Assembly: GCA_963744545.1 (NCBI GenBank)
Contig: CAVUUH010000036.1
Coordinates: 141,880-205,879, forward strand
Direction: 5' to 3'
Origin: an uncultured delta proteobacterium
GTDB taxonomy: Bacteria; Desulfobacterota; Binatia; Binatales; Binataceae
DNA: 64,000 nucleotides
This document shows, piece by piece, positions 4,835 to 28,407 of this stretch (the first letter of the stretch is position 1; the number at the start of each line of letters is the position of its first letter). The position numbers and the translations under genes are program-made. The notes below the pieces were generated by a model. It made no database searches and had not been told where the DNA came from. It saw nothing but the letters and a program-made list of their open reading frames with translations.

Positions 4835-5014
4835 TTCCCCGATTTTGTGCCGTTTTTCCCTCTGATTGAGCCTTCAAAGGTACACTACGCAAGGATATCG
4901 GTACAACTTGGGAGTGCTTCGGACGGGCTGGTGTTGGAACTTTCGTAAATCCCTGTCATTTTGAGCCGTCGCACGGGGGTTTTGCACCGATCGCGATGGG
5001 AGGAGGACAACTTT

Positions 5015-5512
5015 ATGAAGAGTCTGAAATTCAGCCTAATCGTAATGTTCCTTTTCGCGCTTGCAGCCGTCGCGCGTGGTGCGGGCGACGGAGCCGCGCC
5101 CTCTGCTGCGGATGTTCATCTGTTCGACTCGCCCAAGGATATAAAATGGGGGCCGGCGCCACCCGTGGTGCCGAAAGGCGCCCAGGCCGCGGTGCTGGAC
5201 GGAGATCCGTTCAAGGATGGGTCATCTTACACGCTCCGACTGAAGATGCCTGACGGCTACAAGATCCCACCTCACTGGCATCCGACCGATGAGAACGTAA
5301 CGGTATTGAGCGGCACTCTCGGCGCAGGAATGGGAGACCAATTCGATCCGGCCAAAGGTCAGCTGATGAAGCCGGGCGGGTTCGTGACGATGCCGCACGG
5401 CATGCACCATTTCGCGTGGGCCAAGGGTCCAACGGTCGTCCAGGTGCACGGGATCGGGCCGTTCGCCTTCACGTACGTGAATCCGGCTGACGATCCGCGA
5501 AATCAGCACTGA
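5015..5512 (+). CDS. secreted cupin-domain protein
   Basis: Strong SD (gggaggagga) precedes the ATG at 5015. A signal peptide MKSLKFSLIVMFLFALAAVARG is followed by a cupin core (…YKIPPHWHPTDENVTVLSG…). Confidence 0.65.
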   Translation: MKSLKFSLIVMFLFALAAVARGAGDGAAPSAADVHLFDSPKDIKWGPAPPVVPKGAQAAVLDGDPFKDGSSYTLRLKMPDGYKIPPHWHPTDENVTVLSGTLGAGMGDQFDPAKGQLMKPGGFVTMPHGMHHFAWAKGPTVVQVHGIGPFAFTYVNPADDPRNQH

Positions 5513-5552
5513 AAGAGGTCGAGAGACGAGGGTCGGCCAAACAATAGTAAGC

Positions 5553-6013
5553 ATGAAGATCCATACCCTCGAACGCACGCAGATCGTGCGGCGGCCGCTG
5601 GCTGAGACTTCGAATTTTTCTCGGATCCGCGAAATCTTCAGCGGCTGACTCCGGCGTTTCTGAATTTCAGATTTCTCGAGCCGCCGCCCGAAGTCATGCA
5701 TCCGGGAACGGCGATCGATTACCAGATTAGCCTGTATGGTGTGCCGGTGCATTGGCGGACGCGGATTGAAATCGTCGAGCCACCGAACAAGTTTGTCGAT
5801 GTGCAAGAGAAAGGGCCGTACGCCTTATGGCGCCATCGCCATACCTTCAGTGACGCCGGCAACGGAAGGACGGAGGTGAAGGATTTCGTGGAATACGCGC
5901 TGCCGCTGTGGCCGCTCGGCGAGGTTGCGTATTACCTGTTCGTCGCGCGCAGCCTCGAGCAGATATTTGAGTACCGCGAGCGGGAGCTAGAGGCGATTAT
6001 TGGGGGATCCTAA
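5553..6013 (+). pseudogene. SRPBCC-family protein (COG4276-like). There is a frameshift at the T5 run near 5607-5620, and the extreme C-terminus is replaced by read-through into the IS5 left inverted repeat.
   Basis: Frame 0 reads MKIHTLERTQIVRRPLAE, then the -1 frame reads FEFFSDPRNLQRLTPAFLNFRF…WRHRHTF…, matching this family. The last codons (…AIIGGS*) lie inside the IS inverted repeat. Confidence 0.6.
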
Positions 6014-7265
6014 CCTCTCCTTGTCCGAGAGAGCTTTGCACAACCGGCGCGGGTGTTCGGCAGTAACAGGTGGTGCTTTGATTCAGTTCGAAGCGCTGAG
6101 GTGAGGGAGGTGGAGTCCCCTGCAGAGTTGTTGGCTTCTTGTTTTTCGGGTGGCGGATGCGGTTCGGCCTCAGCGCCGCGCTTAAGCGGAGCGCAAGACG
6201 AGCGCCCGGCGCAGATTGAGAGCGACGCACATCAGGTGAAGCTGCAGCGCATTGCGCGTCAGTCCGCGATAACGTACCCGCCGGTATCCGTACCAGCGCT
6301 TCATCCAGGCGAAGCTACGCTCGACCGCGAAGCGGGTGCGGGTCAGACTTCGATTGCGCGCGACCAGCTCCGGATCAGGATTGCGGGCAGTGCCCCACCA
6401 TGCACGCCGCATGATGCCGTCGGCGATGCCCAACCGCGCCAGCAGCTCGCGCCGCGCCACACTATCGTAAGCCTTGTCGCCGTATACACATTGCTCGTCG
6501 CCGCAGATCAGATCGTCGGCCACCACGGTTTCATTGGTTTTGGCCCCGGTCAGGATCGCTTTGCGCACCAGCCCCGAACCGGCGTCCACTGCCACGTGCG
6601 CTTTGTAGCCGAAGTGATAGTGGCGCACCTTGCCGTCCTTGCGCGTGCTCCATTCGGCATCGGGATCCTGCGGAGCCTTGGTCCCCGGCGCAACCGTGCC
6701 CTTGGGCCCGCTGGGCGGATTGACCGCCCCCTGAACTACGGTCGCATCGATGATGGTGCCGCGCTTGAGGATCAATCCTTGCGCTGAAAGCTGGCGGTTA
6801 ACTTCGGCCATCAGCCGCTCGCCGAGACCGCGCCGCGACAGCTGCGCGCGAAAGCGGCTTATCGTGCTGTGATCGGGCAACCGCTGCTTAAATCCCAAGC
6901 CGACAAAACTCCGGAAGCGTGAAACGGTCCAGCGGCGCGTCTTCAAAGCCGGATCAGAGAGCTGATACCATTGCTGCAACAGCAATGCTTTGAACATCAA
7001 CAAGGGCCGATACGCCGGCCGTCCCTCGCCAGCCGCGTACACTTCACCGAGCTGCCCCTCAATCGCGCCCCAGTCCAGCAACTTCGCGATCTCAAGTAGC
7101 CGACGGTTGCCGCCCCCGCTGCCGTATATCTCCTGCTCCGCGAAACTCCTCTGCCGCTCCTCTTCATGCCACATCCGCCCCGCGCCTCCCGCGCACCTAT
7201 CCTTTGATCATACCGCGCGAGGTTATGCAAAGATTTCTCGGACAAGGAGAGGTTAAGATCCTCCA
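6001..7265 (-). mobile_element. IS5-family insertion sequence (~1.26 kb) with ~36-bp imperfect terminal inverted repeats (TGGGGGATCCTAACCTCTCCTTGTCCGAGAGAGCTTTGCA / the reverse complement of the right end TGGAGGATCTTAACCTCTCCTTGTCCGAGAAATCTTTGCA)
   Basis: The inverted repeats were read directly from the sequence. They enclose a single DDE transposase ORF. Confidence 0.8.
6182..7174 (-). CDS. IS5-family DDE transposase
   Basis: A 330-aa ORF with an IS5/IS4-family transposase-like C-terminal region (…DKAYDS…RTRFAVERSFAWMKRWYGYRRVRYRGL…). Confidence 0.85.
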   Translation of the reverse strand: MWHEEERQRSFAEQEIYGSGGGNRRLLEIAKLLDWGAIEGQLGEVYAAGEGRPAYRPLLMFKALLLQQWYQLSDPALKTRRWTVSRFRSFVGLGFKQRLPDHSTISRFRAQLSRRGLGERLMAEVNRQLSAQGLILKRGTIIDATVVQGAVNPPSGPKGTVAPGTKAPQDPDAEWSTRKDGKVRHYHFGYKAHVAVDAGSGLVRKAILTGAKTNETVVADDLICGDEQCVYGDKAYDSVARRELLARLGIADGIMRRAWWGTARNPDPELVARNRSLTRTRFAVERSFAWMKRWYGYRRVRYRGLTRNALQLHLMCVALNLRRALVLRSA

Positions 7266-7279
7266 TTCGCGCAATTGCT

Positions 7280-7726
7280 CTAATAATGCTGGGCGGGGGC
7301 GAAGCGGCCGCCGCCGGGTTCGGTGCCCATCACTTCGTAGGTTTGATTGTTGGGGGAGAACATCCCGCGCACCGTCAAGGTCTCGCCCGGCTGCATTTTC
7401 GCGAACGTGTCTTCGCCGAGGCCGGTGACATTGAAGTTGGGCTTGTACTGGCGGACCAACTGCCAAACGTCCGGCCAATGAACAATGCCGCGCGGGTCGT
7501 CGACGTAGGCGTCGTTGAGCACGAACTTGTAGGTTTTCGGGCCGACGCCCATCGTGACCACCTGCTTGTTGCCGAAGATCTCGCCGGGTGCGGGCTTGGT
7601 GATGACCATCGTGGTGGTCAGCGGAATCATCATTCCGCGCAACTGCGCGTCGGCGCCGGTTGTAATGCCTACGATCGCCGAAATTGCGATCGCGAATATG
7701 CTGATGCTGAAGATAGTTGGTTTCAT
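7280..7726 (-). CDS. hypothetical secreted protein
   Basis: Signal peptide MKPTIFSISIFAIAISAIVGITTGADA. No recognisable domain. Confidence 0.45.
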   Translation of the reverse strand: MKPTIFSISIFAIAISAIVGITTGADAQLRGMMIPLTTTMVITKPAPGEIFGNKQVVTMGVGPKTYKFVLNDAYVDDPRGIVHWPDVWQLVRQYKPNFNVTGLGEDTFAKMQPGETLTVRGMFSPNNQTYEVMGTEPGGGRFAPAQHY

Positions 7727-7868
7727 GCGAGTGACCTTGTCTGCTCCTTGCTGAATCATAAAGAGCGCGCCGACGAACGATCAAGCAGGAGCTTTTCGAC
7801 ACCAGCCTAACTACTGTAAGATTGCGGCCGACGCGCCAGAATCGGCGCCGCCGTGCCAGGGGAGGATT

Positions 7869-9224
7869 ATGAGACTGTCATCGCTTCCGATTGTGGCTGG
7901 AACCGTGTTGGCGATTCTGTGCGCGTTGGCTCCTGCACAAGCCGCGGTCAAGCCCGGCGACGTGATCACCAAGGACAACGCCGACAAGGTCATCGAGCTG
8001 CTGAGCCCCGGCAATTACATATTGGTGCAGGAGGGCATGCAGCTCAGGATCGTGCCGAGTGACAAGCTCGAATGGCCGCCGCCGTTCAAGGCCGCCACCG
8101 AGAAGTACTCGCCTCAAGTCCAGATCAACCCCGACGGCACGCTGAAGGGTTACGTCGCCGGGCTGCCGTTTCCGCTGCTCGATCCGAACGATCCGCAGAT
8201 GGCGACGAAGGTGATGTGGAATTTCAGCTTCCGGCCGCTGTATAGCGACGACATCGACATGCGTTTTCCCGAGGTTGCCAGCTTCGACAAGCACTCGACC
8301 GGATCGCCCCTGAGCTTCTATTCGGTCGGGCACTTCGCGTTCTACAACAATATCGGCCGGATCGAAGTGCCTCCGATACCGACCGATTCCGACGGCGCCG
8401 CCAGCGGCATTCGTTATCGCTTCGGCTTCTATCCGTTCCTGGAGCCGTCGGCATTGCGCGGCTATGGGATGGTGCGGCAGCGGCATATCGATCCCAAGAT
8501 CGAAGACAACGTCTGGGTGTACAATCCGGCGACGCGCAAACTGCGGCGGGAATCGGCAGACGTACTGTCGGACAGCATTGGGGCGTTGCCGGGATTTGGC
8601 GGAGGCGCCGGCGGGGGCGGCAGCTACGGGGGCGGAGCCGGGGGAATGGGAGCCAGTGGCGGTAGTGCCTATGCGAACACGCTCGATCCCGATTCGTATT
8701 TCGGGTTCTCGGCCAAAATCGAAGATTTCAACTACCGATACCTGGGCGAGAAGGAAATGCTCGCGTCGGTGCACGCTCAGCATTCGCCGGAGACGCAATG
8801 CCCATTCGATGGCGGCAAAACAATCTGCCCGGAAGACTGGGAGATGCGCCATCTGTACGTGATCGAAGCGATCTCGAAGCCGGGCCGCGATCTGACGATA
8901 CCCAAGCGTATTTTCTACATCGATTCAGAAGGATGGTTCATCACGGCGTCGGATCAGTACGATCGCCAGGGCAAGCTGTGGAAGACGATCGCGACCTTCA
9001 ATACTTATCGCGACCGGCCGGTCCCCGACGCCAGGATCGCAATCTATCCGTACAAGCGGATTTTCCAGCTGGGCCTGGTCGACGAGGATCTCGACACCGG
9101 CTACAGCTCGGTCGTTTATATGCCCGGGCCGACCGCGCCGGATCGCGAATGTTGGTATATCGACATGGGAACGGTCGACAATTCCTTCTTCGCGCCGCAA
9201 GCACTGGAGCGAGAGGGGCACTGA
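7869..9224 (+). CDS. DUF1329-family secreted protein (LolA-like fold) with an internal Gly-rich low-complexity insertion
   Basis: Signal peptide, then family motifs (…GLPFPLLDPNDPQMATKVMWNFSFRP…, …VWVYNPATRKLRRES…). The insertion is GFGGGAGGGGSYGGGAGGMGASGGSAYAN. Confidence 0.65.
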   Translation: MRLSSLPIVAGTVLAILCALAPAQAAVKPGDVITKDNADKVIELLSPGNYILVQEGMQLRIVPSDKLEWPPPFKAATEKYSPQVQINPDGTLKGYVAGLPFPLLDPNDPQMATKVMWNFSFRPLYSDDIDMRFPEVASFDKHSTGSPLSFYSVGHFAFYNNIGRIEVPPIPTDSDGAASGIRYRFGFYPFLEPSALRGYGMVRQRHIDPKIEDNVWVYNPATRKLRRESADVLSDSIGALPGFGGGAGGGGSYGGGAGGMGASGGSAYANTLDPDSYFGFSAKIEDFNYRYLGEKEMLASVHAQHSPETQCPFDGGKTICPEDWEMRHLYVIEAISKPGRDLTIPKRIFYIDSEGWFITASDQYDRQGKLWKTIATFNTYRDRPVPDARIAIYPYKRIFQLGLVDEDLDTGYSSVVYMPGPTAPDRECWYIDMGTVDNSFFAPQALEREGH

Positions 9225-9370
9225 GCGGATAATCGCCTGCGCGGCGGGCGGCAGGGGTGACCCCTGCACCTCAGTGGGAAGCGCAAAGTTGCGCGCGCAC
9301 GCGCTCACTTTGCTCTCGCGGCTCGGGTGACTCGACGGCGTGCATCCGATGGTTTCTGCGGGAATCCCGG

Positions 9371-11023
9371 CTACAGCTGCAGGACGAAACGGATGTCGCC
9401 CAGGCGGACCTGGCTGCCTGAGCTCAGGAAGGCGGAGCCGCGGATTTGGCGGTCATCGACGTAGCTGCCGTTGGTCGAGTTCAGATCCATCAGCTCGAAG
9501 CCGCCGTCGCGGCGCATCAGGCGCGCGTGCTGTCGCGAGACGCTCGCGTGCGGAATGACGACGTCGTTGTCCTCGCCACGCCCGATCGAGATCTCGTCCT
9601 TCATCAACGAGTACTCGGCCGGTACCGGATCGATGCGATCGACGGCCACCAGCCGCGCGCCTTGGGTAATCCCGGCGCCACGCGGTGCCGTAATCGGTGA
9701 TTGCGACGGCGTTGGTCGCGCGGGTGCGCGCTGCGCCGTACGCGCCGCGGGCGGAGGTGCCGCCGACGGCATCCGAAGCGAGGGTGCGCCCTGCGCCTCG
9801 ACAATAGCCTTGAGTTCGTCGGCCGGCATCCCGAACCTCATTCGCGAGAGTCCGAACAGACCGAGAATCGCGATCAGCGGCACGGCGCCGTTCCACCAAT
9901 TGAATGAGAGTTGCTTCAGCCCGGTGCCGGTCGCGTTTCCGCCGGGCGTGCCTTCATCTTCGGGGACGTTAATCGCAGCGCCGCCAAGGCCGCGCACCTG
10001 GTACGCAGTGTCCGCTTCGCCATCGGAGCCGTTGTAGTCGATCTTCAGCTGGACGCTGCGATTGGTGCCGTCTTCGATTGGCCGCGGCGTTCGATAGGTC
10101 AGCGAATACTCAGTCGCGATCGAATGCCCAATCTCGCGCACCAGCGATGCGAACCGCCCTTCCTCCGTGATGATGTTGTACGAGCGGCCGTGGGTCGCGT
10201 CGACGATTTCCTGGTACTCGGGCGCGATGAATGGCGGCGGAACCACGCCATACAGAGTGAGTCCATTTTTCTTGAGCAGGTCGGCGACCTTAGTCCCCGT
10301 CAGATCCGTCACCTGCACGCCGCGAGTATGATGATCCCAGAACGCCTGATCGTGCGCCGAGTCGGCCGAGCCGTCGCCATCATGATGAGGCGGCGCGTCG
10401 GTGACGATAATGATGATGCCTTCGGCCTCGGGCCGGAACGGAAACTTCGCGGCATAGGCGAGAGCGTCGAGCTGATCCTCGGGGATGTCGCCGCCGCCGC
10501 CGGCATGCAGGGTGCCGACCCAGTCGCTGAACTGCTTGACGTCGGAGGTGAACGAGTTGCGATAGGCGCAATTGCAGTCGGGGTACGCCGAGACCACGTA
10601 GTCCTCGAACGTCACCAGCCCGAGGCGGTAGTCGCGGCTGTTGGATTGCAAATCCTGCGCAAAGGAGATCACGTTCTGCTTGACGGCGTCGATATAAGGC
10701 TGCATCGACTCCGTGACATCGAGCACGAAGACGATATCAACCGGACGGCCCTGGCCGACGCCGCGAAAATCAAGAATCTTGGCCTCTTTGCCATCCTCGA
10801 AAACTTTCACATTGTCGGGACGAAGGTTGCCGACCGGATTACCGTTCTGATCGGTCAGACCGAAGTCGAGCTGAACACCGCCGTCGGCATCGAAATGCTC
10901 GAGGCCCGGATTTCCGGTGGTGATTTTCAGGCTCGCATCGGCGGCTGTCACGCGAGCGCCGAAGCAGAACAGAAGAACTAATATGAACAGGCAGCGACAG
11001 GCGTTTCGATTGGACGATTTCAT
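9371..11023 (-). CDS. membrane protein with a periplasmic von Willebrand factor A domain, a single TM helix and a cytoplasmic C-terminal FHA domain
   Basis: Signal peptide; MIDAS region DIVFVLDVTESM; TM helix AVPLIAILGLFGL; Pro-rich linker; FHA (…ISIGRGEDNDVVIPHASVSRQHARLMRRDGGFELMDLNSTNGSYVDDRQI…). Confidence 0.7.
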   Translation of the reverse strand: MKSSNRNACRCLFILVLLFCFGARVTAADASLKITTGNPGLEHFDADGGVQLDFGLTDQNGNPVGNLRPDNVKVFEDGKEAKILDFRGVGQGRPVDIVFVLDVTESMQPYIDAVKQNVISFAQDLQSNSRDYRLGLVTFEDYVVSAYPDCNCAYRNSFTSDVKQFSDWVGTLHAGGGGDIPEDQLDALAYAAKFPFRPEAEGIIIIVTDAPPHHDGDGSADSAHDQAFWDHHTRGVQVTDLTGTKVADLLKKNGLTLYGVVPPPFIAPEYQEIVDATHGRSYNIITEEGRFASLVREIGHSIATEYSLTYRTPRPIEDGTNRSVQLKIDYNGSDGEADTAYQVRGLGGAAINVPEDEGTPGGNATGTGLKQLSFNWWNGAVPLIAILGLFGLSRMRFGMPADELKAIVEAQGAPSLRMPSAAPPPAARTAQRAPARPTPSQSPITAPRGAGITQGARLVAVDRIDPVPAEYSLMKDEISIGRGEDNDVVIPHASVSRQHARLMRRDGGFELMDLNSTNGSYVDDRQIRGSAFLSSGSQVRLGDIRFVLQL

Positions 11024-11230
11024 CGATGGCAGTAGTAATTCTCCGGATCGGGAAGGCGATCAGTCAAGACTCCGTAATCTATTTGACGCTCGCGCGCTTG
11101 AATGTATTCTTGCCTTCGCTCACTGGTTAGGTTATCCCAAACGCTGACCGAATTCTTCTGTGATGGATTCCGAGTGAAAGATTTTTTGGTGCATCGGACT
11201 GCCCTCCGCCCGACTCTGCCCTCAATTATC

Positions 11231-13423
11231 ATGGTTTGCCTGCTGCTGGTTTTAGCCGTGCCGGCCCGGGCCGCCAAGAACGCAAGGGTTCAGATAGGAT
11301 TTGTCGGCACGCAACCTGTGGCCGGAAATCCTCCAATGCCGCTGACGTTTCAAAACGTCCAGCTCAACGTGGTTGCGATCCGGCTCAATTCGCACGTGGG
11401 CGCGGCGCCGAACTCCAGCGGGTGGCAGAAAATTCCGGCGCCTCCCGGGATTGGCGGCAGTTCCTCGAACGGGGAATTGCAAATCGATCTCAACTCTTCG
11501 CAGAACATTCCGCAGCTCTTCAACACCGCGGCCGTGCGGGTCGACAACTACAAAATCGTCCAGCTCCAGCTCGATACATCCAACCCGGGCAGCTTGATTC
11601 CCACCTGCCCGGCTTCACCGCCAGCCGACGGATGTATCGTTTACCCCATCCAGATAAATAACCCCAACGGCATTACCTTCTCGAATCCCGACAAGAGCGT
11701 GGTCCTCTCCACGAAAACGAAAACGCTGGTATCGTTTGTCATGCAGGTGTCGATATCGATCACCAAGATACCGACGGCGCCAGGCGGCGCGTACACGGCA
11801 ACGATCTCGATCACGCCCATGACAAATCCTTCGACAGGTACGATCACCGGACAAGTGAATGTGGCGACGGGCACCGGCACGGGCACGTCGCCATCGGGAA
11901 AGGTCCGCAAATTGTCGGTGTCCGCCGAAACGATCGGAACCAACACGATTATCGCATCGGCGCCAATCACGCCCACTGCGAACACGGCGGGTGGTCAGAC
12001 TAACTGCCCACCTTCCCCAGGGGGATGCTTCACCCTTACACTTCCGGCGGCAGGGCCGCCGGCCTCAATGCCGTTTGGAACATTATATGACCTCGCAGTG
12101 TCAGGGGGCGCGGTTAATTACGCCGCCGCGCGGTTGCAGCCGCTGAACCCGGGCGAATTTATTTCCGTGCCCAGTTTCAAAGTCACCGGGAACCAGACAC
12201 TGGGGAATATCACCGGGTCGATCGGTGATGGTTGCGTTGCGAACAAACCTATTATCGGGGCCACGCTGCAGTTGTTGATTCCACCGAACGGCGGCACTGA
12301 CAACAGCGTGTGCTTGAGTCCGGCGACGGTAGGCCAATGCGTCACTGTTGCCAGCGCAAATACCGACAACGCCGGCAACTTCCCGCTGCCGGGTACGGTC
12401 TCGACCCCGGCGGCGTTCGCGAACGTTCCTACCCTGCCAAAAAAATCCGACAGCTACGCGATGGAGGTAACCGCGCCGGGCTACGACCCGTTATTCGTCC
12501 AGGTGACTCCGGGATCGGGCAGCAACAAGAAGGGCGGCGGCACCTGCAGCGTCAACGGCGGCGCGGCCGGAGCCTGTAATCTGCTGATGCAGACGGGATA
12601 CATCACAGGATCGATTCCGATAATACCGCCGAATCCCGGGGAAACCGCGTTAATCCAGGTGTTCGCCGAGGATCACAACACCAACAATATCGAAAGCGCG
12701 CTGCCGATGCCGAAGACGGTTGGCAGCAACCCGAATATCACTGACGTAACCTTCACCTTGAACGTTCCTCCCTCAATTCCGATTGGCTTTTTCGATTTGT
12801 TTGCTTCGACGATCGACTTTTATCAAGGCGTCGTCGATCCTTATCAGGGGCATAGTATTGTGGCGATAAGCCACGTCCCGGCTCCTGCGGCGTGCGCTAC
12901 AGTGACGGCTCCCACGCCCACTGACCCGACCCAGGTGATCTCATGCGTAGGTCACGGCAGTATTACCGGAACCGTCGCGAACCCCAATCTCGGTTCGTCG
13001 GTCGTCCTGGAAAAAATCGATCCGGATGCGCCGCCAATGGACGACACCGACGAAGTACAGTTAACGAATTCGCTCGTGCAGAATCAGCCGCCGAATCCAA
13101 CTGCGAGCAGTAACTACTCGTTCTGCGCCCCTGCAGATACTTACCAGGTCCAGGAGTTTCAACTTCCATCACCCACGCAGAGCGAGACGCCTATCGCCGC
13201 GGCTTCGCCCAGCCCGGTTCCGGACAGCTTTGCGACCGTCGTCATTCCGCCGCCGCCGACCGCGGGCGGACCCAGCCCGACTCCGACGCCGGCGATCAAA
13301 TGCCCGACCAACTGCTCGTTCCCCGGTGGCGGATGCCCCGGCATCTGTAACAACGCAGTCCAAGGTTTGCCACCAAGTCCAACAACATTAGTGAAAACGC
13401 CGATCGCGGCACCGACACCATGA
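11231..13423 (+). CDS. large secreted Thr/Pro/Gly/Asn-rich cell-surface protein with paired cysteines
   Basis: ATG at 11231 followed by signal MVCLLLVLAVPARA. The intact ~730-aa low-complexity ORF is divergent from the VWA-FHA gene. Confidence 0.5.
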   Translation: MVCLLLVLAVPARAAKNARVQIGFVGTQPVAGNPPMPLTFQNVQLNVVAIRLNSHVGAAPNSSGWQKIPAPPGIGGSSSNGELQIDLNSSQNIPQLFNTAAVRVDNYKIVQLQLDTSNPGSLIPTCPASPPADGCIVYPIQINNPNGITFSNPDKSVVLSTKTKTLVSFVMQVSISITKIPTAPGGAYTATISITPMTNPSTGTITGQVNVATGTGTGTSPSGKVRKLSVSAETIGTNTIIASAPITPTANTAGGQTNCPPSPGGCFTLTLPAAGPPASMPFGTLYDLAVSGGAVNYAAARLQPLNPGEFISVPSFKVTGNQTLGNITGSIGDGCVANKPIIGATLQLLIPPNGGTDNSVCLSPATVGQCVTVASANTDNAGNFPLPGTVSTPAAFANVPTLPKKSDSYAMEVTAPGYDPLFVQVTPGSGSNKKGGGTCSVNGGAAGACNLLMQTGYITGSIPIIPPNPGETALIQVFAEDHNTNNIESALPMPKTVGSNPNITDVTFTLNVPPSIPIGFFDLFASTIDFYQGVVDPYQGHSIVAISHVPAPAACATVTAPTPTDPTQVISCVGHGSITGTVANPNLGSSVVLEKIDPDAPPMDDTDEVQLTNSLVQNQPPNPTASSNYSFCAPADTYQVQEFQLPSPTQSETPIAAASPSPVPDSFATVVIPPPPTAGGPSPTPTPAIKCPTNCSFPGGGCPGICNNAVQGLPPSPTTLVKTPIAAPTP

Positions 13424-14115
13424 AAAACACGGCAAAGCTGGCGATGCGGAACTTCGCGCGAATGTTAGCGACAGGCGCGCTCGGCGCGATGCTCGCCGTT
13501 TCGATCGGAGCGTGCAACAACCAAACTGGATTTTCCGGCAGCGTCGGCAGTACCCCCAACGGTCCGAAGCTGCCTTCGTATCAAATCCTTGGCACGGTCG
13601 GGACGCCGTTCACTGCGACCATCTCGGACAATCGATCGTTTTGGACGCTGCAGGGAAACGTCCCGCTCAGCATCGCGATCTGCAACCCTCCTTCGGCGGA
13701 CGCGCAACTCGTCGTTACCAAGACGACTTCCGACGACAGCCTGTTGAGCGCCGAGATAATAACCGCCAATCACGTCAAGGATCTTCAATCGACGACGGCG
13801 CCCTTTGGTACCGTACAAGTGCAGATCGGTACGCAGACCTCGGCTCCAGGGGCTGCGGATCCTGATCTCCGAATATTCCTGAGCGGTCCGCTTAACGTGA
13901 AGTACCAGGCACTGGTCGAGGACATCGACACTGGATTCATAATCCAGGCGCGCGCGCCGACGCTGATAGTGTTCGACACCCCCAATGGCAAGGTGGACGC
14001 GACCTTCTTCGGACCCAACAACCACACCACCTTCACCGCCAACATGACGTTCAACGGAGAGGTGGTAGTCCCGACCTTCAGCCACGGTCCCAACCTGACG
14101 ATTCGCCAGCCATGA
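13420..14115 (+). CDS. lipoprotein of unknown function, translationally coupled to the upstream surface-protein gene
   Basis: An ATGA overlap with the upstream gene. Signal peptide plus lipobox (…LAVSIGAC). Confidence 0.55.
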   Translation: MKNTAKLAMRNFARMLATGALGAMLAVSIGACNNQTGFSGSVGSTPNGPKLPSYQILGTVGTPFTATISDNRSFWTLQGNVPLSIAICNPPSADAQLVVTKTTSDDSLLSAEIITANHVKDLQSTTAPFGTVQVQIGTQTSAPGAADPDLRIFLSGPLNVKYQALVEDIDTGFIIQARAPTLIVFDTPNGKVDATFFGPNNHTTFTANMTFNGEVVVPTFSHGPNLTIRQP

Positions 14116-14282
14116 CCGGCGCACAGAGTTGAGTCAGCGCTAGTAGTACCAATGAGTTTCGATTCGTTGAGCCGTTTCAGCCCGATACGTTTGACAGCCT
14201 CCCGCATTCGTCATACTTAGCCTCTGTAGCAGTGAGCGATTCGACAAACGCATCTGAGTCTCCCCGCCTCTGAAATCATTCT

Positions 14283-15400
14283 ATGAACTCGCAGCTCGTG
14301 CGCCGGGTAGTTTTAGTTGTCGTGATCATTGCAATCGCCGTCGCTGCGATTCCCGCTTATCGCTACTACCGCTTCCTCGAAAGTCACGTCAGCACTGACG
14401 ACGCCTATGTTGACGGTACCGTCGCGCTGGTGTCGTCGCGTGTCGCCGGCACCGTCACCAACGTTTACGTCGAGGACAACTGGGCGGTTAAGGAAGGGCA
14501 GTTGCTGCTGACGCTCGATCCGCGCGACTTCGAGGTCAAGGTCGAGCAGGCCGAGGCTCAGCTCGAGCGCGCAAAGCAATCGGTCGACGAGATGTACGCA
14601 GGAGTGCAGGCGGCCAGGTCGGGTGTGTCATTGGTACAGTCGCAGCTCAAGCAGGCGAAGATCGATTTCGATCGCGCCAAATCCTTGAAGGAACAAGGCG
14701 TCGTCTCGACCGAACAATACGATCAGGCCGACACCGGATTGCGCATCGCGCAGGCCGATGAAGCGTTGGCGGAGCATCAGTTGACCCAGGCACAAGCGGC
14801 CCTCGGAACTCAAACCGACGACCAGTCGCGCTACGAACGACCGATCGTCAAGCAGGCCGAGGCCGCTCTGGAAGCCGCCAAGCTCGATCTGAGCTATACC
14901 AAGATCACGGCGCCGTTCACCGGCGTCATCACTCACAAAACGGCGCACGTCGGCAATCGCGTGCAGGTCGGGGAGCCGCTGCTGGCGATCGTCCCGCTCG
15001 GCAAGCTCTACGTCACAGCGAATTTCAAGGAGACTCAGCTGACGGACGTGCGGGTTGGACAGAAAGCAGAGATCGTCGCCGACATCTATCCCGGCTTTAC
15101 CTATCAGGGACATGTCGATTCGATCAGCATGGGCACCGGCGCTGCCTTCTCGCTGCTGCCGCCCGAAAACGCCACCGGCAACTGGGTCAAAGTCGTGCAG
15201 CGGGTGCCGGTCAAGATTGTTATCGACGGACCGCGTCCCGAAGACAAGCCGCTCCGCCTTGGGCTGTCGGTTGAAGTGTCAATCGATCTGAGCGATCGCA
15301 GCGGACCGCTGCTGTCCTCGATGGTGCAGCAGCACTACCAGAAAGACGGCCAGACGCTGCCCAATGAGACCCTCGAGATGGCGCCCGAGTCTCAGCCGTC
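14283..15400 (+). CDS. HlyD/EmrA-family membrane-fusion (periplasmic adaptor) protein; the 3' end is uncertain because the ORF reads through into the next gene
   Basis: N-terminal TM segment, coiled-coil region and the typical β-barrel/MPD segment (…YTKITAPFTGVITHKTAHVGNRVQVGEPLLAIVPL…). No cognate transporter gene is adjacent. Confidence 0.7.
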
Positions 15401-15558
15401 GTCAGAGCCGCCGCCCGAACACCGGAACGCAGCAACATTTCATGAACCCCCTGCATTAGCCGTGCGCCACTCCACACCTGACACGCGTGTCAGGTCAATT
15501 GCGCCCGATTTCTGCGTGTACTACTCTGCGGTTCGCGTGGAATCTCCGCCCGCGTTTT

Positions 15559-16649
15559 GTCCAGATGCTCGACCCTCGCGACATTGCACAACGTCTATCC
15601 GCTTATCTCGGCGCGCCGGTTGCGCGCCTGAGCGTCCTCGCCAGCGGATGGGAAACCACGGTCTTCGAATTCACGCTGGAAGCGCGTCGCAGCGGTTTGC
15701 GTCAATCCCGGTCGGCGTACCGATGGTTTTGCGCTTCTATCAAGGCTCCGCCGCCGACGCCAAAGGCGCGCGCGAACACACCACCATCGATCGCCTATTC
15801 GGCGCGGGCTACCCAGTCCCGCGTCCGTACGCGTTCGAGGCCGACCATGGCGCGCTCGGCGCACCGTTCCTCATCATGCAGAAGCTGGCGGGCGGACAGC
15901 TGTTCGCGGTCCGCAGCTTTCCGAATGCCTTCAGGACCTTCTCGATGGCATTTTTTTCATTCGTCCGCACACAATCGAGACTCCACAAACTGGATCCGGT
16001 GAGCGCAGGCCTGCGCGAGATTCCCCGCGCGTATGCGGCCGTCGGTAACGCCCGCGATGACTCGCCGCTGCTCGATCGAGTGCTCGCGATCATCGCCAAT
16101 CGGGTCGAGAACGGTCCGCTCCCCGGCCTTCGCGAGGCGCTCAATCTCGTCACCGAGCGCGCGCCGAAATTCCGCCGCAGCCCGGATTCTCTCGTGCACA
16201 TGGACTACCACCCGCTCAACGTGATGGTGCAGGGAGTGCGCGTGACCGGCGTGATCGACTGGGTGAATACGGACGTCGGCGATCGCCATCTCGACGCCGC
16301 GATGACGGCGGTGATTTTGTCGTCGTCGGCGCTCGAGAACCCGCGATGGATGCGCGACAACCTGGTCGGCAACGGGCTTCGCGCGAGCTTCGCGGCGCTG
16401 TACATGCCGCTCTACCATGCGATGGCGCCGATGGACTTCGAGCGTTTCCGCTACTGCCAGGCGGTCGCGGCACTGCTGCGGCTCTCGATGATGGGGATGA
16501 TGCGCGCGCGCGGCCCGGAAATCGTGGGCTTCCGCCGCGAAGCGATCGACGAAGTCACGCCCGCCGTCGTACGACTGCTGAGCCGCTACGCAACCCGCAA
16601 GAGCGGCGCGTCGGTGCGCCTGGATGCGCCCGCGCCGCAACCGGCGTGA
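15559..16649 (+). pseudogene. aminoglycoside/choline-kinase-like phosphotransferase (APH family) with an apparent frameshift near 15715
   Basis: The N-terminus is in frame +1 (MLDPRDIAQRLSAYLGAPVARLSVLASGWETTVFEFTLE). The remainder is in frame 0 (…GYPVPRPYAFEAD…LIMQKLAGGQL…SLVHMDYHPLNVMV…GVIDWVNTDVGDRHLD…). Confidence 0.65.
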
Positions 16650-16697
16650 GTCGCGCTCGCGCGCCTATCGCATTCAGCTAAAAAAATCTGTAACTGA

Positions 16698-17012
16698 ATG
16701 GGCATGCGAAAGTGTTATGTGACCTCGCTGGTGTTGATCTCCTGGTTCCTGTTGATGCCGCCGCCGGTTTTTCCGCCGGTGAAGAGCGCGTCAGGTGATT
16801 ACAAGATGAATACCACGGCGCCGATTTCCCAATGGCTTAAATTTAAAACGCTCAAGTCCGAGCAGGCCTGCAAGGCGCAATTGAAAAAAGTGCAGCCCTA
16901 CTTCAAATGCGTTGCGAGCGACGACCCCGCGCTCGTGCAGCATGCCCCAGCCCCCGCCAGCGCCCCGAGTGTCTCGACAATCTCCGGCGCCGCCGGCGCT
17001 CACATGCAATAG
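16698..17012 (+). CDS. small secreted hypothetical protein
   Basis: A 104-aa ORF with an N-terminal hydrophobic segment. Confidence 0.3.
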   Translation: MGMRKCYVTSLVLISWFLLMPPPVFPPVKSASGDYKMNTTAPISQWLKFKTLKSEQACKAQLKKVQPYFKCVASDDPALVQHAPAPASAPSVSTISGAAGAHMQ

Positions 17013-17027
17013 GCGCGCTCTCTGTTT

Positions 17028-17052
17028 TTCCCCTCTCCCGCGGGGAGAGGGG
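17028..17052. terminator. bidirectional hairpin cccctctccc gcgg ggagagggg between convergent genes
   Basis: A perfect 10-bp inverted repeat between the stops at 17012 (+) and 17064 (-). Confidence 0.5.
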
Positions 17053-17063
17053 AAGAAGTCGCG

Positions 17064-17749
17064 TCAGATCGTTTTGCGGAGGGCGGCGCGCGTGAGAATG
17101 CGCGTCGAGTCGAGAACGGGCAACGGAGAATCGGCGGGACTTATCAGCAACGGAATCTCGGTGCAGGCCAACGCGACCGCGTCGCAGCCGTCAGTGGCGA
17201 GATTGCGGATTACATTTTGAAAGTATGCGCGGGACTCCGGAAGGATGCGCGCATTCACCAACTCTTCGTAAATGATCTGATTGATACGCTCGCGCTGTTC
17301 GAGGTTCGGAACGCGGTACTCGATACCTGCCGGCGCCAGCTTCGACGGATATACGGGTCCCTCCATCAGGTAGCGCGTTCCCAGAATTCCGAGCCGCTTG
17401 AAGCCATGCCGCCGAGCCTCGCCTGCAACTTCCTCGGCGATGTGGATCCACGGCGCGGGTGAACGCTCATGGACCAGATCGAGCCCCTGGTGAACAGTAT
17501 TGTCAGGACAAATCAGCAGTTGCGCGCCAGACTGGACGAGCTTCGCCGCCGACTCGAGCATCATCTCACCGACTGCGTCCCAACGGTCCTCCTCGATGGG
17601 CGCTGATAGCTGCCGAGCGAGAAACCGTGCAGCGTGATCTCCGGATGCTCATGCGGCCCCAGAAATTCCGCACCTTCGAGACAGATCGTGCGGTAACAGA
17701 GAGCGGCACCTTCGGAACTGACCGCGACGATGCCGATATGCTTCGTCAC
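17064..17749 (-). pseudogene. aspartate/glutamate racemase family protein with an apparent 1-nt frameshift in a CCC run near 17590
   Basis: N-terminus MTKHIGIVAVSSEGAALCYRTI…HPEITLHGFS, then +1 frame IEEDRWDAVGEMMLESAAKLVQSGAQLLICPDNTVH…. Confidence 0.7.
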
Positions 17750-20505
17750 GCAATCAATTCGCGCAGCACGAACGGCAGGATTCCGCCGTGCCGGACGTAC
17801 TCGACTTCCTCAGGCGTGTCCGCGCGCATCGTCACCTCGAACTCTGTCGTCTTGCCGCCGAATTCAGCACGCACCTTTAACGTCTGGCGCGGCTTGATCC
17901 CGGCTTTGAGTCCGGTGATCGAAAACAATTCCTTACCGATGAGCCCGAGTGTCTGCCGATTTTCGCCGGGCTTGAACTCGAGCGCGAGCACGCCCATCCC
18001 AATCAGATTGCTGCGATGGATTCGCTCGAAGTTTTCCGCGATCACGGCGCGCACGCCGAGCAGTTGCACACCCTTGGCGGCCCAATCGCGCGACGAGCCG
18101 GTGCCGTATTCCTTGCCCGCGATCACGATCAGCGGAACGCCCTCTTTGCGATAGCGCTCCGACGCGTCGAAAATCGTCATCTTCTCGCCGTCCGGCTGAT
18201 GCGCCGTGAACCCGCCCTCGACCCCCGGCACCATCAGGTTCTTGAGCCGGATATTCGCGAGCGTCCCGCGCATCATCACCTCATGATTCCCGCGCCGCGC
18301 GCCGTACGAGTTGAAATCCTTGGGCTGCACGCCGTGCTCGATCAGGTACTTGCCCGCGGGACTGTCGGGTGCGATCGAGCCCGCCGGCGAAATATGATCG
18401 GTCGTCACGCTGTCGCCGAGAACCGCGAGCGCCCTCGCGCCGTTGATGTCGGTGAACTCTCCAACTTTCGCGGTCACGCCCTCGAAGAACGGCGGCGCCT
18501 TCACATAGAGCGAATCTTCCGCCCATCGGAACAGGTTGCCCTCGGGAACTTTGAGACTCTTCCATCTTTCGTCGCCTTCAAACACCTGCCCGTACTCGCT
18601 CTTGAACATCTCGGCGTGAACCGAGCCGGTCACTGCAGCCGCGACTTCTTCCTGCGACGGCCAGATGTCGCGCAAAAACACCGGACGCCCGTCGGAACCG
18701 GTGCCGAGCGGCTGATGCTCGACGTCGATATCCATCGTGCCGGCAATCGCGTACGCGACCACCAGCGGCGGCGACGCGAGGTAGTTGAATCGCACGACGG
18801 GATTGATGCGCCCCTCGAAATTGCGATTGCCGCTCAGGATCGCGCACGCCACCAGGTTGCCATTCTTGATCGCGCCGGCGATCGCCTCGTCAACCGGCCC
18901 GCTGTTGCCGATACAAGTCGTGCATCCGTAACCAACCAGGTTGAAGCGTAGTTTTTCCAGTGACTCGATCAGTCCCGCGCGCTTGAGGTACTGCGTGACG
19001 ACCTTCGATCCTGGCGCCAGGCTGGTCTTCACGAATGGCTTGACGGTCAGCCCGCGTGCGACCGCTTTCTTCGCGAGAATCCCCGCCGCCAGCATCACCG
19101 ACGGATTCGAGGTGTTGGTGCAGCTCGTGATAGCGGCGATCACGATCGAGCCATGCGTCAGCCGAAACTTCCCAGCCTCGGAATGCACCTCGACCTTATG
19201 CGCGATATGCCCGAGCTTCGTTTCGAGGATGGTTCCCTCGCCGGCAACCGCGCCGTTGCCGCCTTCGGCGACCCACTTCGCCAGCTCGTCGCGATCGACG
19301 CTCGGATGCTCCTCGAACTCCTTGCCGAGCTCGCGACGAAAATCGCTCTTGGCCTGCGTCAGCGCGACTCGATCCTGCGGACGTCGCGGACCCGCCATGC
19401 TCGGCACGACGCTGCCGAGATCGAGTTCGAGCGTGTCGGAAAATTTCGGCTCGGGCGCGTCGGGCGAATTGAAAAGTCCTTGCGCCTTGCAGTACGCCTC
19501 GATCAATTTGATCTGGCTGTCGCTGCGGCCAGTCAGCCGCAGATACGTGAGCGTCTGTTCGTCGACCGGAAAATATCCCATCGTTGCGCCGTACTCGGGC
19601 GACATGTTGCCGAGCGTCGCGCGATCCGCGACCGGCAGCGATGCGAGCCCCGGCCCGAAGTACTCGACGAACTTGCCGACCACGCCTTTCTTGCGCAGCA
19701 TCTGGGTGACAGTCAGCACCAGGTCGGTCGCCGTCGCGCCGGGACGCAGACTGCCCGAGAGGCGAAAGCCGATCACTTCGGGAATCAGCATCGGCATCGA
19801 GCGCCCGAGCATCGCGGCTTCGGCCTCGATTCCGCCGACGCCCCATCCCACGACGCCGAGCCCGTTGATCATCGTGGTGTGCGAGTCGGTGCCGATGACA
19901 GTGTCGGGATACGCCTCGCCCTTCTCCGACGCGAAAACCACCGGCGCGAGATATTCGAGATTGACCTGGTGAACGATTCCGGTGTCAGGCGGCACGACGC
20001 GAAAATTGTCGAACGCGCCCTGGCCCCATCGCAGGAAAAGATAGCGTTCCTGGTTGCGCTCGAACTCGAGTTGCGCGTTGGCGGCGAAGGCGTTGGCGGT
20101 TCCGAACGAATCGACCTGCACAGAATGATCGATCACCAAATCGACCGGCTGCAGGGGACTTATCTTGTCGGGATTGCCGCCGAGCTTCTTGATGGCGTCG
20201 CGCATCACCGCCAAATCCGCGACCACCGGCACGCCGGTAAAGTCCTGCAAGAGCACGCGCGCCGGCATGAACGAGACTTCGCGCTCGCCGCCCTTGCCGT
20301 TCCATCGGGCCAGCGCTTCTATCTGACCCTTCGTCACGATCACTCCGTCCTCGCGCCGCAACACGTTCTCGATCATCACCTTGATCGAATACGGCATTCG
20401 CGCGAGCGAGAACCCCCGCTTCTCGAGCGCATCGAGTTTGTAAATCGTGTAGCTCTTGCCATCAACCGTGAGGGTTGAACGAGCACCAAAACTGTTTGTC
20501 GTCAT
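17746..20505 (-). CDS. acnA: aconitate hydratase AcnA
   Basis: Full-length match to aconitase A (MTTNSFGARSTL…SIKVMIENVLRREDG…). The likely start is the ATG at 20505. Confidence 0.9.
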   Translation of the reverse strand: MTTNSFGARSTLTVDGKSYTIYKLDALEKRGFSLARMPYSIKVMIENVLRREDGVIVTKGQIEALARWNGKGGEREVSFMPARVLLQDFTGVPVVADLAVMRDAIKKLGGNPDKISPLQPVDLVIDHSVQVDSFGTANAFAANAQLEFERNQERYLFLRWGQGAFDNFRVVPPDTGIVHQVNLEYLAPVVFASEKGEAYPDTVIGTDSHTTMINGLGVVGWGVGGIEAEAAMLGRSMPMLIPEVIGFRLSGSLRPGATATDLVLTVTQMLRKKGVVGKFVEYFGPGLASLPVADRATLGNMSPEYGATMGYFPVDEQTLTYLRLTGRSDSQIKLIEAYCKAQGLFNSPDAPEPKFSDTLELDLGSVVPSMAGPRRPQDRVALTQAKSDFRRELGKEFEEHPSVDRDELAKWVAEGGNGAVAGEGTILETKLGHIAHKVEVHSEAGKFRLTHGSIVIAAITSCTNTSNPSVMLAAGILAKKAVARGLTVKPFVKTSLAPGSKVVTQYLKRAGLIESLEKLRFNLVGYGCTTCIGNSGPVDEAIAGAIKNGNLVACAILSGNRNFEGRINPVVRFNYLASPPLVVAYAIAGTMDIDVEHQPLGTGSDGRPVFLRDIWPSQEEVAAAVTGSVHAEMFKSEYGQVFEGDERWKSLKVPEGNLFRWAEDSLYVKAPPFFEGVTAKVGEFTDINGARALAVLGDSVTTDHISPAGSIAPDSPAGKYLIEHGVQPKDFNSYGARRGNHEVMMRGTLANIRLKNLMVPGVEGGFTAHQPDGEKMTIFDASERYRKEGVPLIVIAGKEYGTGSSRDWAAKGVQLLGVRAVIAENFERIHRSNLIGMGVLALEFKPGENRQTLGLIGKELFSITGLKAGIKPRQTLKVRAEFGGKTTEFEVTMRADTPEEVEYVRHGGILPFVLRELIA

Positions 20506-27144: not shown

Positions 27145-28407
27145 TTGCGAGTGAGAATGGGCCAGCCGCGACGCACGACGCCATCAATTTCGGCCTCATC
27201 GCCACGCGAGCACGCTCTCTTGACCCTCGGGCAGCACTACCCGGCTTCTGCTAGAATCGCGCGCGTGCAATCGCTCGACGACTACATCCCGCGCCCAGGC
27301 CTCTCCGTTCCCATCGTTACGATTCTCGACGCTCGCGGCCGCGTCCTCGAAGACCAGCAGCGCGCCGTCGTTCGCTTCGCGCTGCAGGACGGCGCCGGCG
27401 CCGACATCATCTTCGCCGCAGGCACCACCGGCGAATGGGATCGTATCGACAACTCACGCCGCCAGGCCGTCGCGCGAATCGCGATCGAGGAATGCCGCCG
27501 CGTGCGCGAGTCCGTCGCCAAGAAGATCGAAGCATGGGCCGGCATCACCGCGCACACCCGCGCCGACACGCTCGACAACCTCACTCATGCGCTCCACGCT
27601 GGCGCCGACGCAGTGGTGGTCGCGCCGCTGTCGATCAAGGACGTCGAGAATCCAGCCGAATTCGTTGAGCGCGACATCGGCGCCGTATTCAATCGCGCGG
27701 GCCGGATGCTCCCGCTGTTTCTCTACGACAACGCCGACATCGCCGCTCCCGGCAAGGCGCCGCATCTGCATACGCGCGACGTCAAGGCGATGGCGCGGCT
27801 GCCGTACGTGCGCGGAATAAAAGTCACCGCGAGCAAGACCGTCATTGGCAACTACACGCGCGCCGCGTCGCATTTCAAAGCGGGTCACGAGTTCGCGATC
27901 TATGCCGGCAACGCGTACCTCATCTTCGATTTGTTCGCCCCGCCTGAAGGCGTCGGCGATCGCATGCGCCATTACTGGAATCGTTACCTGACTCAGCGCA
28001 CGCGCCCTTACGGCGTCGTCGCGGGGCCTGCCAATGCGATGCCGCGCGAATGGCAGCGCGGATGGCAGGTCTGCCGTTCAGGCGACATCGAGCTGATGCG
28101 CTTGTATGCTGACGCGATCGAGGAATTTCGCATCACCTGTACGTTCAAGCGCGGCGCCAAGTCCTATCGCCCGACGATTGCGACGATCAAGGCGTCGCTC
28201 AAGGAAATGGGCGTCATCGAGAGCGACGCAGTCGGCGCGGGCACGCCGCCGATGAGCGATACCGAGCGCCGCGAATTCTCGACGCGATTCGCCGCACTAC
28301 GCGATCGCAACGCCGAGATGCTTGAGCGCGGATGGGTCAGCGAATACGATTCGCCCGCCGGCCTCGCGCCGGCAACCGAACGAAAATCTGCGGGGCGCAA
28401 TGGCTGA
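27145..28407 (+). CDS. dihydrodipicolinate synthase/N-acetylneuraminate lyase family protein; the true start is probably internal
   Basis: …PIVTILDARGRVLEDQQRAVVRFALQDGAGADIIFAAGTTGEW… resembles the DapA/NAL family. Confidence 0.55.
   Translation: MRVRMGQPRRTTPSISASSPREHALLTLGQHYPASARIARVQSLDDYIPRPGLSVPIVTILDARGRVLEDQQRAVVRFALQDGAGADIIFAAGTTGEWDRIDNSRRQAVARIAIEECRRVRESVAKKIEAWAGITAHTRADTLDNLTHALHAGADAVVVAPLSIKDVENPAEFVERDIGAVFNRAGRMLPLFLYDNADIAAPGKAPHLHTRDVKAMARLPYVRGIKVTASKTVIGNYTRAASHFKAGHEFAIYAGNAYLIFDLFAPPEGVGDRMRHYWNRYLTQRTRPYGVVAGPANAMPREWQRGWQVCRSGDIELMRLYADAIEEFRITCTFKRGAKSYRPTIATIKASLKEMGVIESDAVGAGTPPMSDTERREFSTRFAALRDRNAEMLERGWVSEYDSPAGLAPATERKSAGRNG

Follow-up and report, generated by a model that had tools for sequence, protein, structure and literature searches.

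A conserved four-gene envelope locus of Candidatus Binatus, with a constrained VWA-TM-FHA protein and membrane-fusion adaptor beside a fast-diversifying exported protein and lipoprotein

The 64-kb stretch of DNA analysed here (the window) comes from the uncultured soil bacterium Candidatus Binatus (Binataceae) and contains a run of genes for exported and membrane proteins, which raises the question whether these genes belong together and, if so, what they do in the cell envelope. Binataceae are abundant uncultured bacteria of soil and peat, and, to our knowledge, nothing is known of their cell envelope. The genome paper on Binatota reports a capacity for alkane degradation and leaves S-layer, secretion, efflux and outer membrane unmentioned (PMC8262859). 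An initial annotation had treated six consecutive genes, all for exported or membrane proteins, as one unit. We confirm the six genes in place, with export or membrane signals in each; the unit, however, comprises four of them, encoding a VWA-transmembrane-FHA protein (VWA-TM-FHA; in short, VWA-FHA), a large exported protein here called BIG, a lipoprotein and a membrane-fusion adaptor, and the remaining two, encoding a DUF1329 protein and a small secreted protein, are separable from it. The features on which the argument turns are as follows.

9371..11023, minus strand: core gene 1, VWA-TM-FHA, 550 amino acids (aa)
11024..11173, 150 bp: divergent regulatory region between VWA-TM-FHA and BIG
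11174..13423, plus strand: core gene 2, BIG, 749 aa, GTG start (full open reading frame, ORF, 11102-13423)
13420..14115, plus strand: core gene 3, lipoprotein, 231 aa, start at ATG 13420 (ATGA overlap) or at the conserved Met 13444
14283..15459, plus strand: core gene 4, membrane-fusion adaptor, EmrA-like, anchored by an N-terminal TM helix
15565..16649, plus strand: APH-fold (kinase-like) phosphotransferase gene, frequent fifth member, frameshifted in the window

Relatives of the locus were scored by tblastn in 134 distinct loci, which remained after removal of 3 duplicates from 45 GTDB species representatives, 80 metagenome loci and 12 exact-protein look-ups (9 kept). All 134 loci lie within Binataceae, and the counts that follow are counts of non-independent events; the metagenome loci were found by a scan with exact peptide patterns, whose finds are confined to the same family at identities of at least 67%. 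The results show that the genes, for which the initial annotation had proposed a synteny check, are co-conserved in the 45 GTDB, 80 metagenome and 9 further loci. BIG is the divergent neighbour of VWA-FHA in 108 of 112 testable loci; of the four misses, two are tandem BIG duplications, one is a paralogue locus and one is degraded. The lipoprotein gene comes next after BIG in 88 of 96 testable loci (the misses are mostly high-scoring segment pairs split by frameshifts), the adaptor gene lies at most 1.5 kb beyond the lipoprotein gene in 75 of 75, and the APH-like gene at most 3 kb beyond the adaptor gene in 40 of 40, with aconitase usually next. The APH-like gene is absent from L053 and L113, both of which have too little flank to enter the last count. 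We conclude that VWA-TM-FHA, BIG, lipoprotein and adaptor form the invariant core, and that the APH-like gene is a frequent fifth member.

The gene set is conserved through rearrangements on either side. The core is kept with a different left flank (Usp/CBS, acetyl-CoA synthetase and acetate kinase) in L057, with the gene for a thiamine-pyrophosphate (TPP) enzyme directly on the left in L052 and about nine further loci, with an opposite-strand DUF1329-like gene in place of aconitase on the right in L050 and L053, and despite a right-flank breakpoint in L113. Toxin-antitoxin, transposase, LanC-like and Kelch genes have been inserted at the secreted protein/DUF1329, DUF1329/VWA-FHA, lipoprotein/adaptor and adaptor/APH-like junctions; among the loci scored, the VWA-FHA/BIG and BIG/lipoprotein junctions never carry an insertion. 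The junctions outside the core are insertion hot spots. Individual cases, with HicB-like, HigB plus HTH, MazE, DDE_3 transposase and LanC-like insertions, are L002:7623-7892, L003:2846-4548 and 4670-5890, and L052:1389-1631.

The four genes also fall into two rate classes. Over nine within-genus comparisons, the ratio of nonsynonymous to synonymous substitution rates (dN/dS) ranges from 0.06 to 0.08 for VWA-FHA (up to 0.23 in the most divergent comparison) and from 0.03 to 0.11 for the adaptor, as compared with 0.01-0.10 for the TPP enzyme and 0.03-0.10 for aconitase. The corresponding ranges are 0.24-0.33 for BIG and 0.17-0.32 for the lipoprotein, 3-10 times the values for receptor and adaptor. 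We conclude that receptor and adaptor are under housekeeping-level constraint. VWA-FHA identity is 67-98% over all loci, with long invariant stretches in the ectodomain, and in the deepest lineages VWA-FHA retains 66% identity, the adaptor 65-68% and BIG 25-29%. In a mirror-tree analysis with aconitase distance controlled, the partial correlation is 0.64 for BIG and lipoprotein and 0.54 for BIG and adaptor, and 0.43 or less for all other pairs. When the window is compared with L007, L013 and L003, synonymous divergence (dS) is 0.64-1.05 for BIG and lipoprotein vs. 0.3-0.67 for flanking genes (several genome pairs), which hints at older alleles or at recombinational exchange of a BIG-lipoprotein cassette.

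VWA-FHA and BIG are divergent and have a common regulatory region, as the initial annotation had it, although the region measures 150 bp and not the 200 bp given there. Two predicted sigma-70-like promoters stand back-to-back within it, one on the minus strand (TTGACT-18-GAGAAT, 11067-11038) and one on the plus strand (TTGACG-16-TATTCT, 11083-11110). Genus-wide, nucleotide identity of the region is 80-94%, above that of the BIG coding region (50-86% at the amino acid level for BIG), and its invariant blocks fall on the hexamers of both predicted promoters. A 12-mer in the predicted BIG 5' leader, TTAGGTTATCCC (11127-11138), is invariant in 32 of 32 aligned loci, the most divergent included. 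RNAalifold finds no covarying structure in the leader (5 pairs, 0 compensatory changes, -2.55 kcal/mol), and Rfam gives no match in window positions 5000-18000 at E<=1; conservation therefore lies at the primary-sequence or promoter level. The 12-mer is a candidate operator or unusual promoter element.

VWA-TM-FHA starts with a signal peptide and an integrin-beta-like VWA domain in the periplasm; one TM helix (residues ~375-395) leads to the cytoplasmic part, in which a linker rich in Pro and Ala precedes the FHA domain at the C-terminus. The VWA domain matches Integrin_beta (PF00362; 41.4 bits, cut-off 24.8), VWA_4 (49.4 bits, cut-off 27) and VWA in Pfam, and its motif set, DxTxS...D-I-P-E...TDAPPH, is invariant or nearly so in the alignment (D102-x-T104-x-S106, P181-E182 and D209); its metal site is a variant metal-ion-dependent adhesion site, because Thr stands for the first Ser. 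The FHA domain matches PF00498 with 70 bits (cut-off 20.7), and its binding residues are canonical and invariant in the alignment (G481-R482, S496-x-x-H499 and N518-G519). Sequence matches in the PDB are GarA/OdhI, Rv1747, ArnA and integrin beta-8. The protein also matches Yop-YscD_cpl in Pfam (E 3e-13) and, weakly, TagH and GltG in NCBIfam, at the domain level and far under the family cut-offs. The cytoplasmic linker is variable, with a semi-conserved T-A-P-R about 20 residues N-terminal to the FHA domain, which we infer to be a candidate phospho-site. As a separate observation, L065:7892-8314 (likewise L060, L063, L068, L069 and L070) carries a degenerate duplicate of about 140 codons of the VWA-FHA 3' end, just downstream of the intact gene, with the last 60 FHA residues nearly identical and stops upstream; it looks like a rearrangement scar.

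BIG had been annotated as an intact low-complexity Thr/Pro-rich surface protein of 773 aa. An alignment of 30 homologues places its conserved start at GTG 11174, which makes the protein 749 aa long; the upstream ATG, at 11102, is unconserved and sits within the predicted promoter -10 box. The richness in Pro (12.8%) and Thr (10.5%) stands, with 8.6% charged residues; the low complexity does not, as low-entropy windows of 30 residues number 3 of about 72 and the AlphaFold model is folded, all-beta and multi-domain (predicted local distance difference test score, pLDDT, 64.5). The protein begins with a Sec signal peptide ending in AxA, followed by a divergent DUF4382 domain, by about four transthyretin-like/CnaB-like beta-sandwich domains with one Cys pair each, and by a Pro/Thr linker. 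DUF4382 (PF14321) is matched by 23 of 30 aligned relatives (best E 1.1e-6), many database relatives carry a precomputed PF14321 match, and the window copy has no match at E 10; the literature on DUF4382 amounts to one passing mention. The Cys pairs of the initial annotation are real: 14 Cys are invariant among the 30 aligned homologues, mostly one pair per domain. Near the C-terminus, at 13301 (13301-13348), lies a four-Cys motif, CPTNCSFPGGGCPGIC, of the form CxxxC-x6-CxxxC; family-wide the motif reads CPxxC-x5-8-CPGxC, or CxxIC...CLLC in distant members, and lies 7-28 residues before the stop. We considered this motif as a shared sorting tag and rejected it for now: about 1 Mb of related DNA contains no copy of it other than those that end BIG. 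Structure searches with BIG match transthyretin-like and CnaB domains, Gram-positive pilins and the S-layer protein SlaB.

When 1.84 billion representative proteins were searched with a profile, the BIG family came to only 172 clusters at 50% identity, and BIG is for this reason lineage-restricted. Homologues of BIG, lipoprotein and VWA-FHA are annotated in all cases as Candidatus Binatus or Binataceae: every named match among the 223 found for the lipoprotein is Binatus, and the 120 matches listed for VWA-FHA are all at least 88% identical, a search depth that does not reach other phyla. Apart from the core, a second BIG paralogue lies at L027:6373-12196 (SPRUCE 224), after genes for a P450, a TetR and a DUF1329 protein, with no lipoprotein, VWA-FHA or adaptor gene nearby, and tandem BIG duplications occur in two divergent lineages (L099:3571-7760 and L137:19-3819).

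The lipoprotein has the lipobox AVSIGAC-NNQ, whose Cys32 is kept in every one of 38 sequences, and acylation is predicted; its model comprises two beta-sandwiches (pLDDT 81) with generic structure matches only. The ATGA overlap by which it had been held to be coupled to BIG is present in the window and in L001; most relatives have instead a gap of 3-50 nt.

The adaptor matches HlyD_D23 (64.1 bits, cut-off 30), HlyD_3 (61.2 bits, cut-off 22.2) and Biotin_lipoyl_2 (35.6 bits, cut-off 29.8) in Pfam, and its best NCBIfam match is TIGR00998, EmrA/EmrK (E 6e-91), at 304.9 bits under the cut-off of 390.8. Its ORF does not end near 15400: it reads through to 16649, in frame with the APH-like gene, and spans 788 codons (14283-16649). 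Alignment of the window with L001 reveals a 1-bp insertion at ~15417, in the adaptor gene, and a 1-bp deletion at ~15678, in the APH-like gene, and relatives have a separate 391-aa adaptor and a 361-aa APH-like gene. We therefore reject a 788-aa HlyD-APH 'fusion' as a real protein, since it is the product of two 1-bp indels relative to all relatives; the indels may stem from faulty assembly or may be genuine frameshifts. The APH-like protein matches PF01636 and has its catalytic HxDxxxxN motif at 16197; its gene begins 3-4 nt after the adaptor gene in L050 and L052.

That the adaptor has no nearby ABC, MFS or RND partner, as first annotated, holds: no such gene lies within 10 kb in the window, the nearest MFS gene being at 62750-63955. 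Nor is a transporter encoded just outside the core in any orthologous locus examined: where the flank extends past the adaptor, none of the MFS EmrB, FUSC AaeB/MdtO or ABC types is adjacent, and the called genes of L001-L003, L050, L052, L053 and L057 include no adaptor transporter. Likewise, no gene for an outer-membrane factor adjoins the adaptor in the window or in orthologous loci with flank past it.

To the left of the core lie three features, as follows.

6001..7265, minus strand: insertion sequence of the IS5 family (transposase ORF 6182-7174), a neighbour outside the cluster
7280..7759, minus strand: small secreted protein, 159-codon ORF with a signal peptide, family unassigned
7869..9224, plus strand: DUF1329 / LolA-like protein, periplasmic (signal peptide), peripheral to the core and separable from it

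The IS5 element, correctly recognised at the outset, has a transposase that matches PF01609 DDE_Tnp_1 (88.9 bits) and PF05598 DUF772 (69.9 bits) in Pfam and has inverted repeats of 45 nt (6001-6045 / 7221-7265, 89% complementary); it has no counterpart in relatives, as checked in the closest relative, L001. The small secreted protein has no match in Pfam, NCBIfam or PADLOC; because relatives have 148 aa (orthologues are 148-149 aa), its probable start is 7726, giving 148 aa. The identification of the next gene as DUF1329, LolA-like, is borne out by matches to PF07044 (154 bits, cut-off 23.1) and LolA_like PF17131 (42 bits). Only 46 of 92 loci have DUF1329 no more than 300 nt from VWA-FHA, and the gene is absent or relocated in L039, L052, L057, L104, L105, L111, L113, L114, L118, L124, L128, L132 and L135. 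In at least nine loci both DUF1329 and the small secreted protein are missing, and VWA-FHA stands directly beside the TPP enzyme gene; L052 and L057 also lack both genes, and in L104 the pair is inverted and 5.5 kb away. The junction between the two carries insertions of 0.8-4.4 kb in 21 of 69 loci. We conclude that the small secreted protein is peripheral, keeping company with DUF1329 or the TPP side and not with the core. No DUF1302 partner for the DUF1329 gene was found among about 29 window ORFs scanned, a scan of the window that was not exhaustive.

Elsewhere in the window, a single ORF of 577 codons (28322-30055) contains both PfkB kinase and SIS domains; this ORF and the indels at 15417 and 15678 suggest that other single-base errors, by which genes are merged or split, may be present in the window. 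Two further ORFs lie at 31196-32875 and 33258-34604: one has an N-terminal FAD_binding_2 domain and a C-terminal encapsulin shell domain (Linocin_M18, E 5e-66), and its neighbour has an FAD-binding motif at its extreme C-terminus. They are either a frameshift-split flavoprotein beside an encapsulin or a fused cargo-shell gene.

What might the four genes do together? The reading to which we lean, tentatively and at somewhat less than an even chance, is that they form an envelope module in which a constrained inner-membrane receptor and adaptor handle or sense a fast-diversifying, Sec-exported BIG and its lipoprotein. According to this reading, BIG would leave the cytoplasm by the Sec route and owe its stability to a disulfide in each beta-sandwich domain and to a C-terminal four-Cys knot, and BIG and lipoprotein would be held at or beyond the outer membrane as an exposed, diversifying structure (adhesin, coat or pilin-like). 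Receptor and adaptor, both conserved and both anchored in the inner membrane, would be the machinery, with the adaptor as a periplasmic strut or conduit. The metal site of the VWA ectodomain would bind a conserved acidic feature of the BIG/lipoprotein pair, and the ectodomain would be coupled across the membrane to the FHA domain, a reader of phospho-threonine, the phospho-threonine lying perhaps in the T-A-P-R of the receptor's own linker and being written perhaps by the APH-fold kinase. The outcome would be outside-in or inside-out control, analogous to that of integrins or LapD. The initial suggestion of a surface-display or adhesin-export unit with an FHA signalling arm would fit the rate pattern and the pilin/CnaB-like fold.

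Several observations weigh against this reading. The partial rate correlation between VWA-FHA and BIG is 0.30, and a hypervariable BIG faces a VWA ectodomain that hardly varies; structure searches with BIG and lipoprotein gave generic beta-sandwich matches only; the APH-like protein matches small-molecule kinase families weakly, and the 64-kb window has no Hanks-type kinase or PP2C motif; and every locus comes from one family. The adaptor gene, moreover, has its own upstream gap of 160-190 nt, into which 0.65-1.3 kb has been inserted in three loci (L011, L043 and L046), and in most loci the TPP enzyme gene on the left and the aconitase and Lhr helicase genes on the right are syntenic in the same order too; because these flanks are syntenic, adjacency alone is weak and in part phylogenetic inertia. 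These last two points, and the circumstance that the functional link between core genes is one that we infer, speak for synteny without common function: a stable chromosome stretch holding a BIG-lipoprotein bicistron, a stand-alone VWA-TM-FHA and an adaptor whose pump is encoded elsewhere. We consider this explanation rather unlikely, though a serious one. It does not account for the loci in which the core is intact where left or right flanks have changed, for a divergent promoter region that keeps its spacing and sequence better than BIG does, for the BIG-lipoprotein and BIG-adaptor pairs having the highest rate co-variation after the aconitase control, or for the uninterrupted VWA-FHA/BIG and BIG/lipoprotein junctions next to junctions where toxin-antitoxin and IS insertions are common.

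More specific functions fare less well. A dedicated trans-envelope export or assembly machine, with VWA-TM-FHA as scaffold, the adaptor as channel to an outer-membrane factor, BIG as cargo and the lipoprotein as pilot or anchor, is improbable: BIG has a classical Sec signal and would therefore reach the periplasm without the adaptor, the locus encodes no energising ATPase, transporter or outer-membrane factor, a single-pass protein is unable to form a conduit, and the NCBIfam matches to secretion components are the domain-level ones described above. Of the same order, and decidedly improbable, is the most elaborate form of the module reading, an integrin-like bidirectional signalling or adhesion device in which the VWA domain holds BIG and lipoprotein, the FHA domain reads phospho-threonine written by the APH-like protein, and the adaptor is a transporter-independent strut. 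The handling of hydrophobic substrates, with DUF1329, BIG and lipoprotein binding or shuttling lipids or alkane-type compounds and the adaptor in an export or uptake route, would suit the alkane and methylotroph lifestyle proposed for Binatota (PMC8262859), and DUF1329-like genes stand near BIG in three arrangements, as independent adjacencies: upstream and convergent with VWA-FHA (window), directly upstream of the BIG paralogue (L027), and downstream on the opposite strand (L050 and L053). The partial correlation of DUF1329 and BIG is 0.42. At least 14 loci, however, keep the core without DUF1329, and the adjacencies may be chance; for BIG and lipoprotein, both arrays of beta-sandwiches, neither a hydrophobic cavity is predicted nor a lipid-binding fold matched, and the L027 paralogue locus has no lipoprotein, VWA-FHA or adaptor gene. 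We regard this explanation as very improbable. Least credible, and highly improbable, is a role in phage defence or conflict, as a vWA/FHA/kinase system. Such domains (VWA, FHA, APH-like kinase) do recur in ternary conflict systems (PMC7159879), and BIG and lipoprotein do diversify fast, but PADLOC gives no match for any of seven proteins, the locus encodes neither a MoxR ATPase nor a Hanks kinase, a PP2C or an effector domain, the VWA domain is extracytoplasmic (a signal peptide before it and a TM helix after it), and the chromosomal position is fixed in every genome and not patchy.

The cluster is probably important to the cells that carry it, because its position is constant among all genomes examined and two of its genes are constrained like central metabolism. 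If the four genes cooperate, they would point to a role for a membrane-fusion protein without an adjacent pump and to a bacterial integrin-type ectodomain coupled to phospho-threonine signalling, and the diversifying exported pair could mark strain-level surface variation, for example at the interface with phages or predators. If the integrin-like device were true, envelope-spanning machines would gain a new class, and a membrane-fusion protein would have a role other than efflux. If the genes do not cooperate, the locus is ordinary conserved synteny with several hypothetical exported proteins.

Comparison with known systems proceeds from the receptor. The vWA-MoxR systems and the ternary systems of vWA, Ser/Thr kinase, PP2C and FHA are cytoplasmic and MoxR-linked (PMC7159879), whereas the VWA domain of the window is extracytoplasmic and its locus has no MoxR, Hanks or PP2C domain. 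ArnA (FHA) and ArnB (vWA) are a phospho-dependent regulatory pair of Sulfolobus (PMC6509490), in which, as here, FHA and vWA act together beside surface-structure genes, and ArnA is among the PDB matches of the window FHA domain; the Arn proteins, however, are two soluble cytoplasmic proteins, whereas the window domains are fused and lie on opposite sides of the membrane, with no ArnC/D-type kinase near the cluster. GarA/OdhI and Rv1747, the nearest solved relatives of the window FHA domain, have FHA domains that bind a phospho-threonine of the same protein. With integrin beta, VWA-TM-FHA shares a betaI-type VWA ectodomain that one TM helix joins to a signalling tail in the cytoplasm; it lacks an alpha subunit as well as hybrid, PSI and EGF domains (no Pfam match in the protein or its neighbours), its cytoplasmic part is an FHA domain, and homology is confined to the VWA fold. 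YscD/EscD (type III secretion), TagH (type VI secretion) and GltG (Agl-Glt) likewise have a cytoplasmic FHA domain, one TM helix and a periplasmic domain, but VWA-TM-FHA has the reverse order (FHA C-terminal), a periplasmic VWA domain and none of the partner genes of those machines.

The exported pair and the adaptor invite comparisons of their own. LapA/LapD/LapG offers a functional analogy only, in that a TM receptor ties a cytoplasmic signal to a large beta-rich surface protein and the locus includes a membrane-fusion protein; LapA, however, is a type I substrate without a Sec signal and LapD reads c-di-GMP, whereas BIG has a Sec signal, the window locus has no LapG-like protease, ABC transporter or outer-membrane factor, and no sequence homology was found. 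DUF4382 proteins and arrays of CnaB/transthyretin-like domains (Gram-positive pilins, the B. anthracis TIE protein, SlaB) are the structural counterparts of BIG, from which the window BIG differs in having no Pfam match; with sortase-assembled pilins it shares fold similarity only, ends in a family-specific four-Cys motif and not in LPXTG, and has no sortase among its neighbours. The adaptor has the N-terminal TM anchor, lipoyl/barrel-sandwich, alpha-hairpin and beta-barrel of membrane-fusion proteins of the EmrA/AaeA/MdtN type, but scores under the TIGR00998 cut-off and has no adjacent MFS, FUSC or ABC partner or outer-membrane factor. The DUF1329 gene is a clear member of the family known from the DUF1302/DUF1329 outer-membrane pairs of Pseudomonas, but stands outside the conserved core and has no DUF1302 gene among the ORFs scanned. 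The initial annotation had held that the combination is not a described system, and we found no described system with it. The individual domains (membrane-fusion protein, FHA, betaI-like VWA, DUF4382, DUF1329 and IS5) are known; their combination is new.

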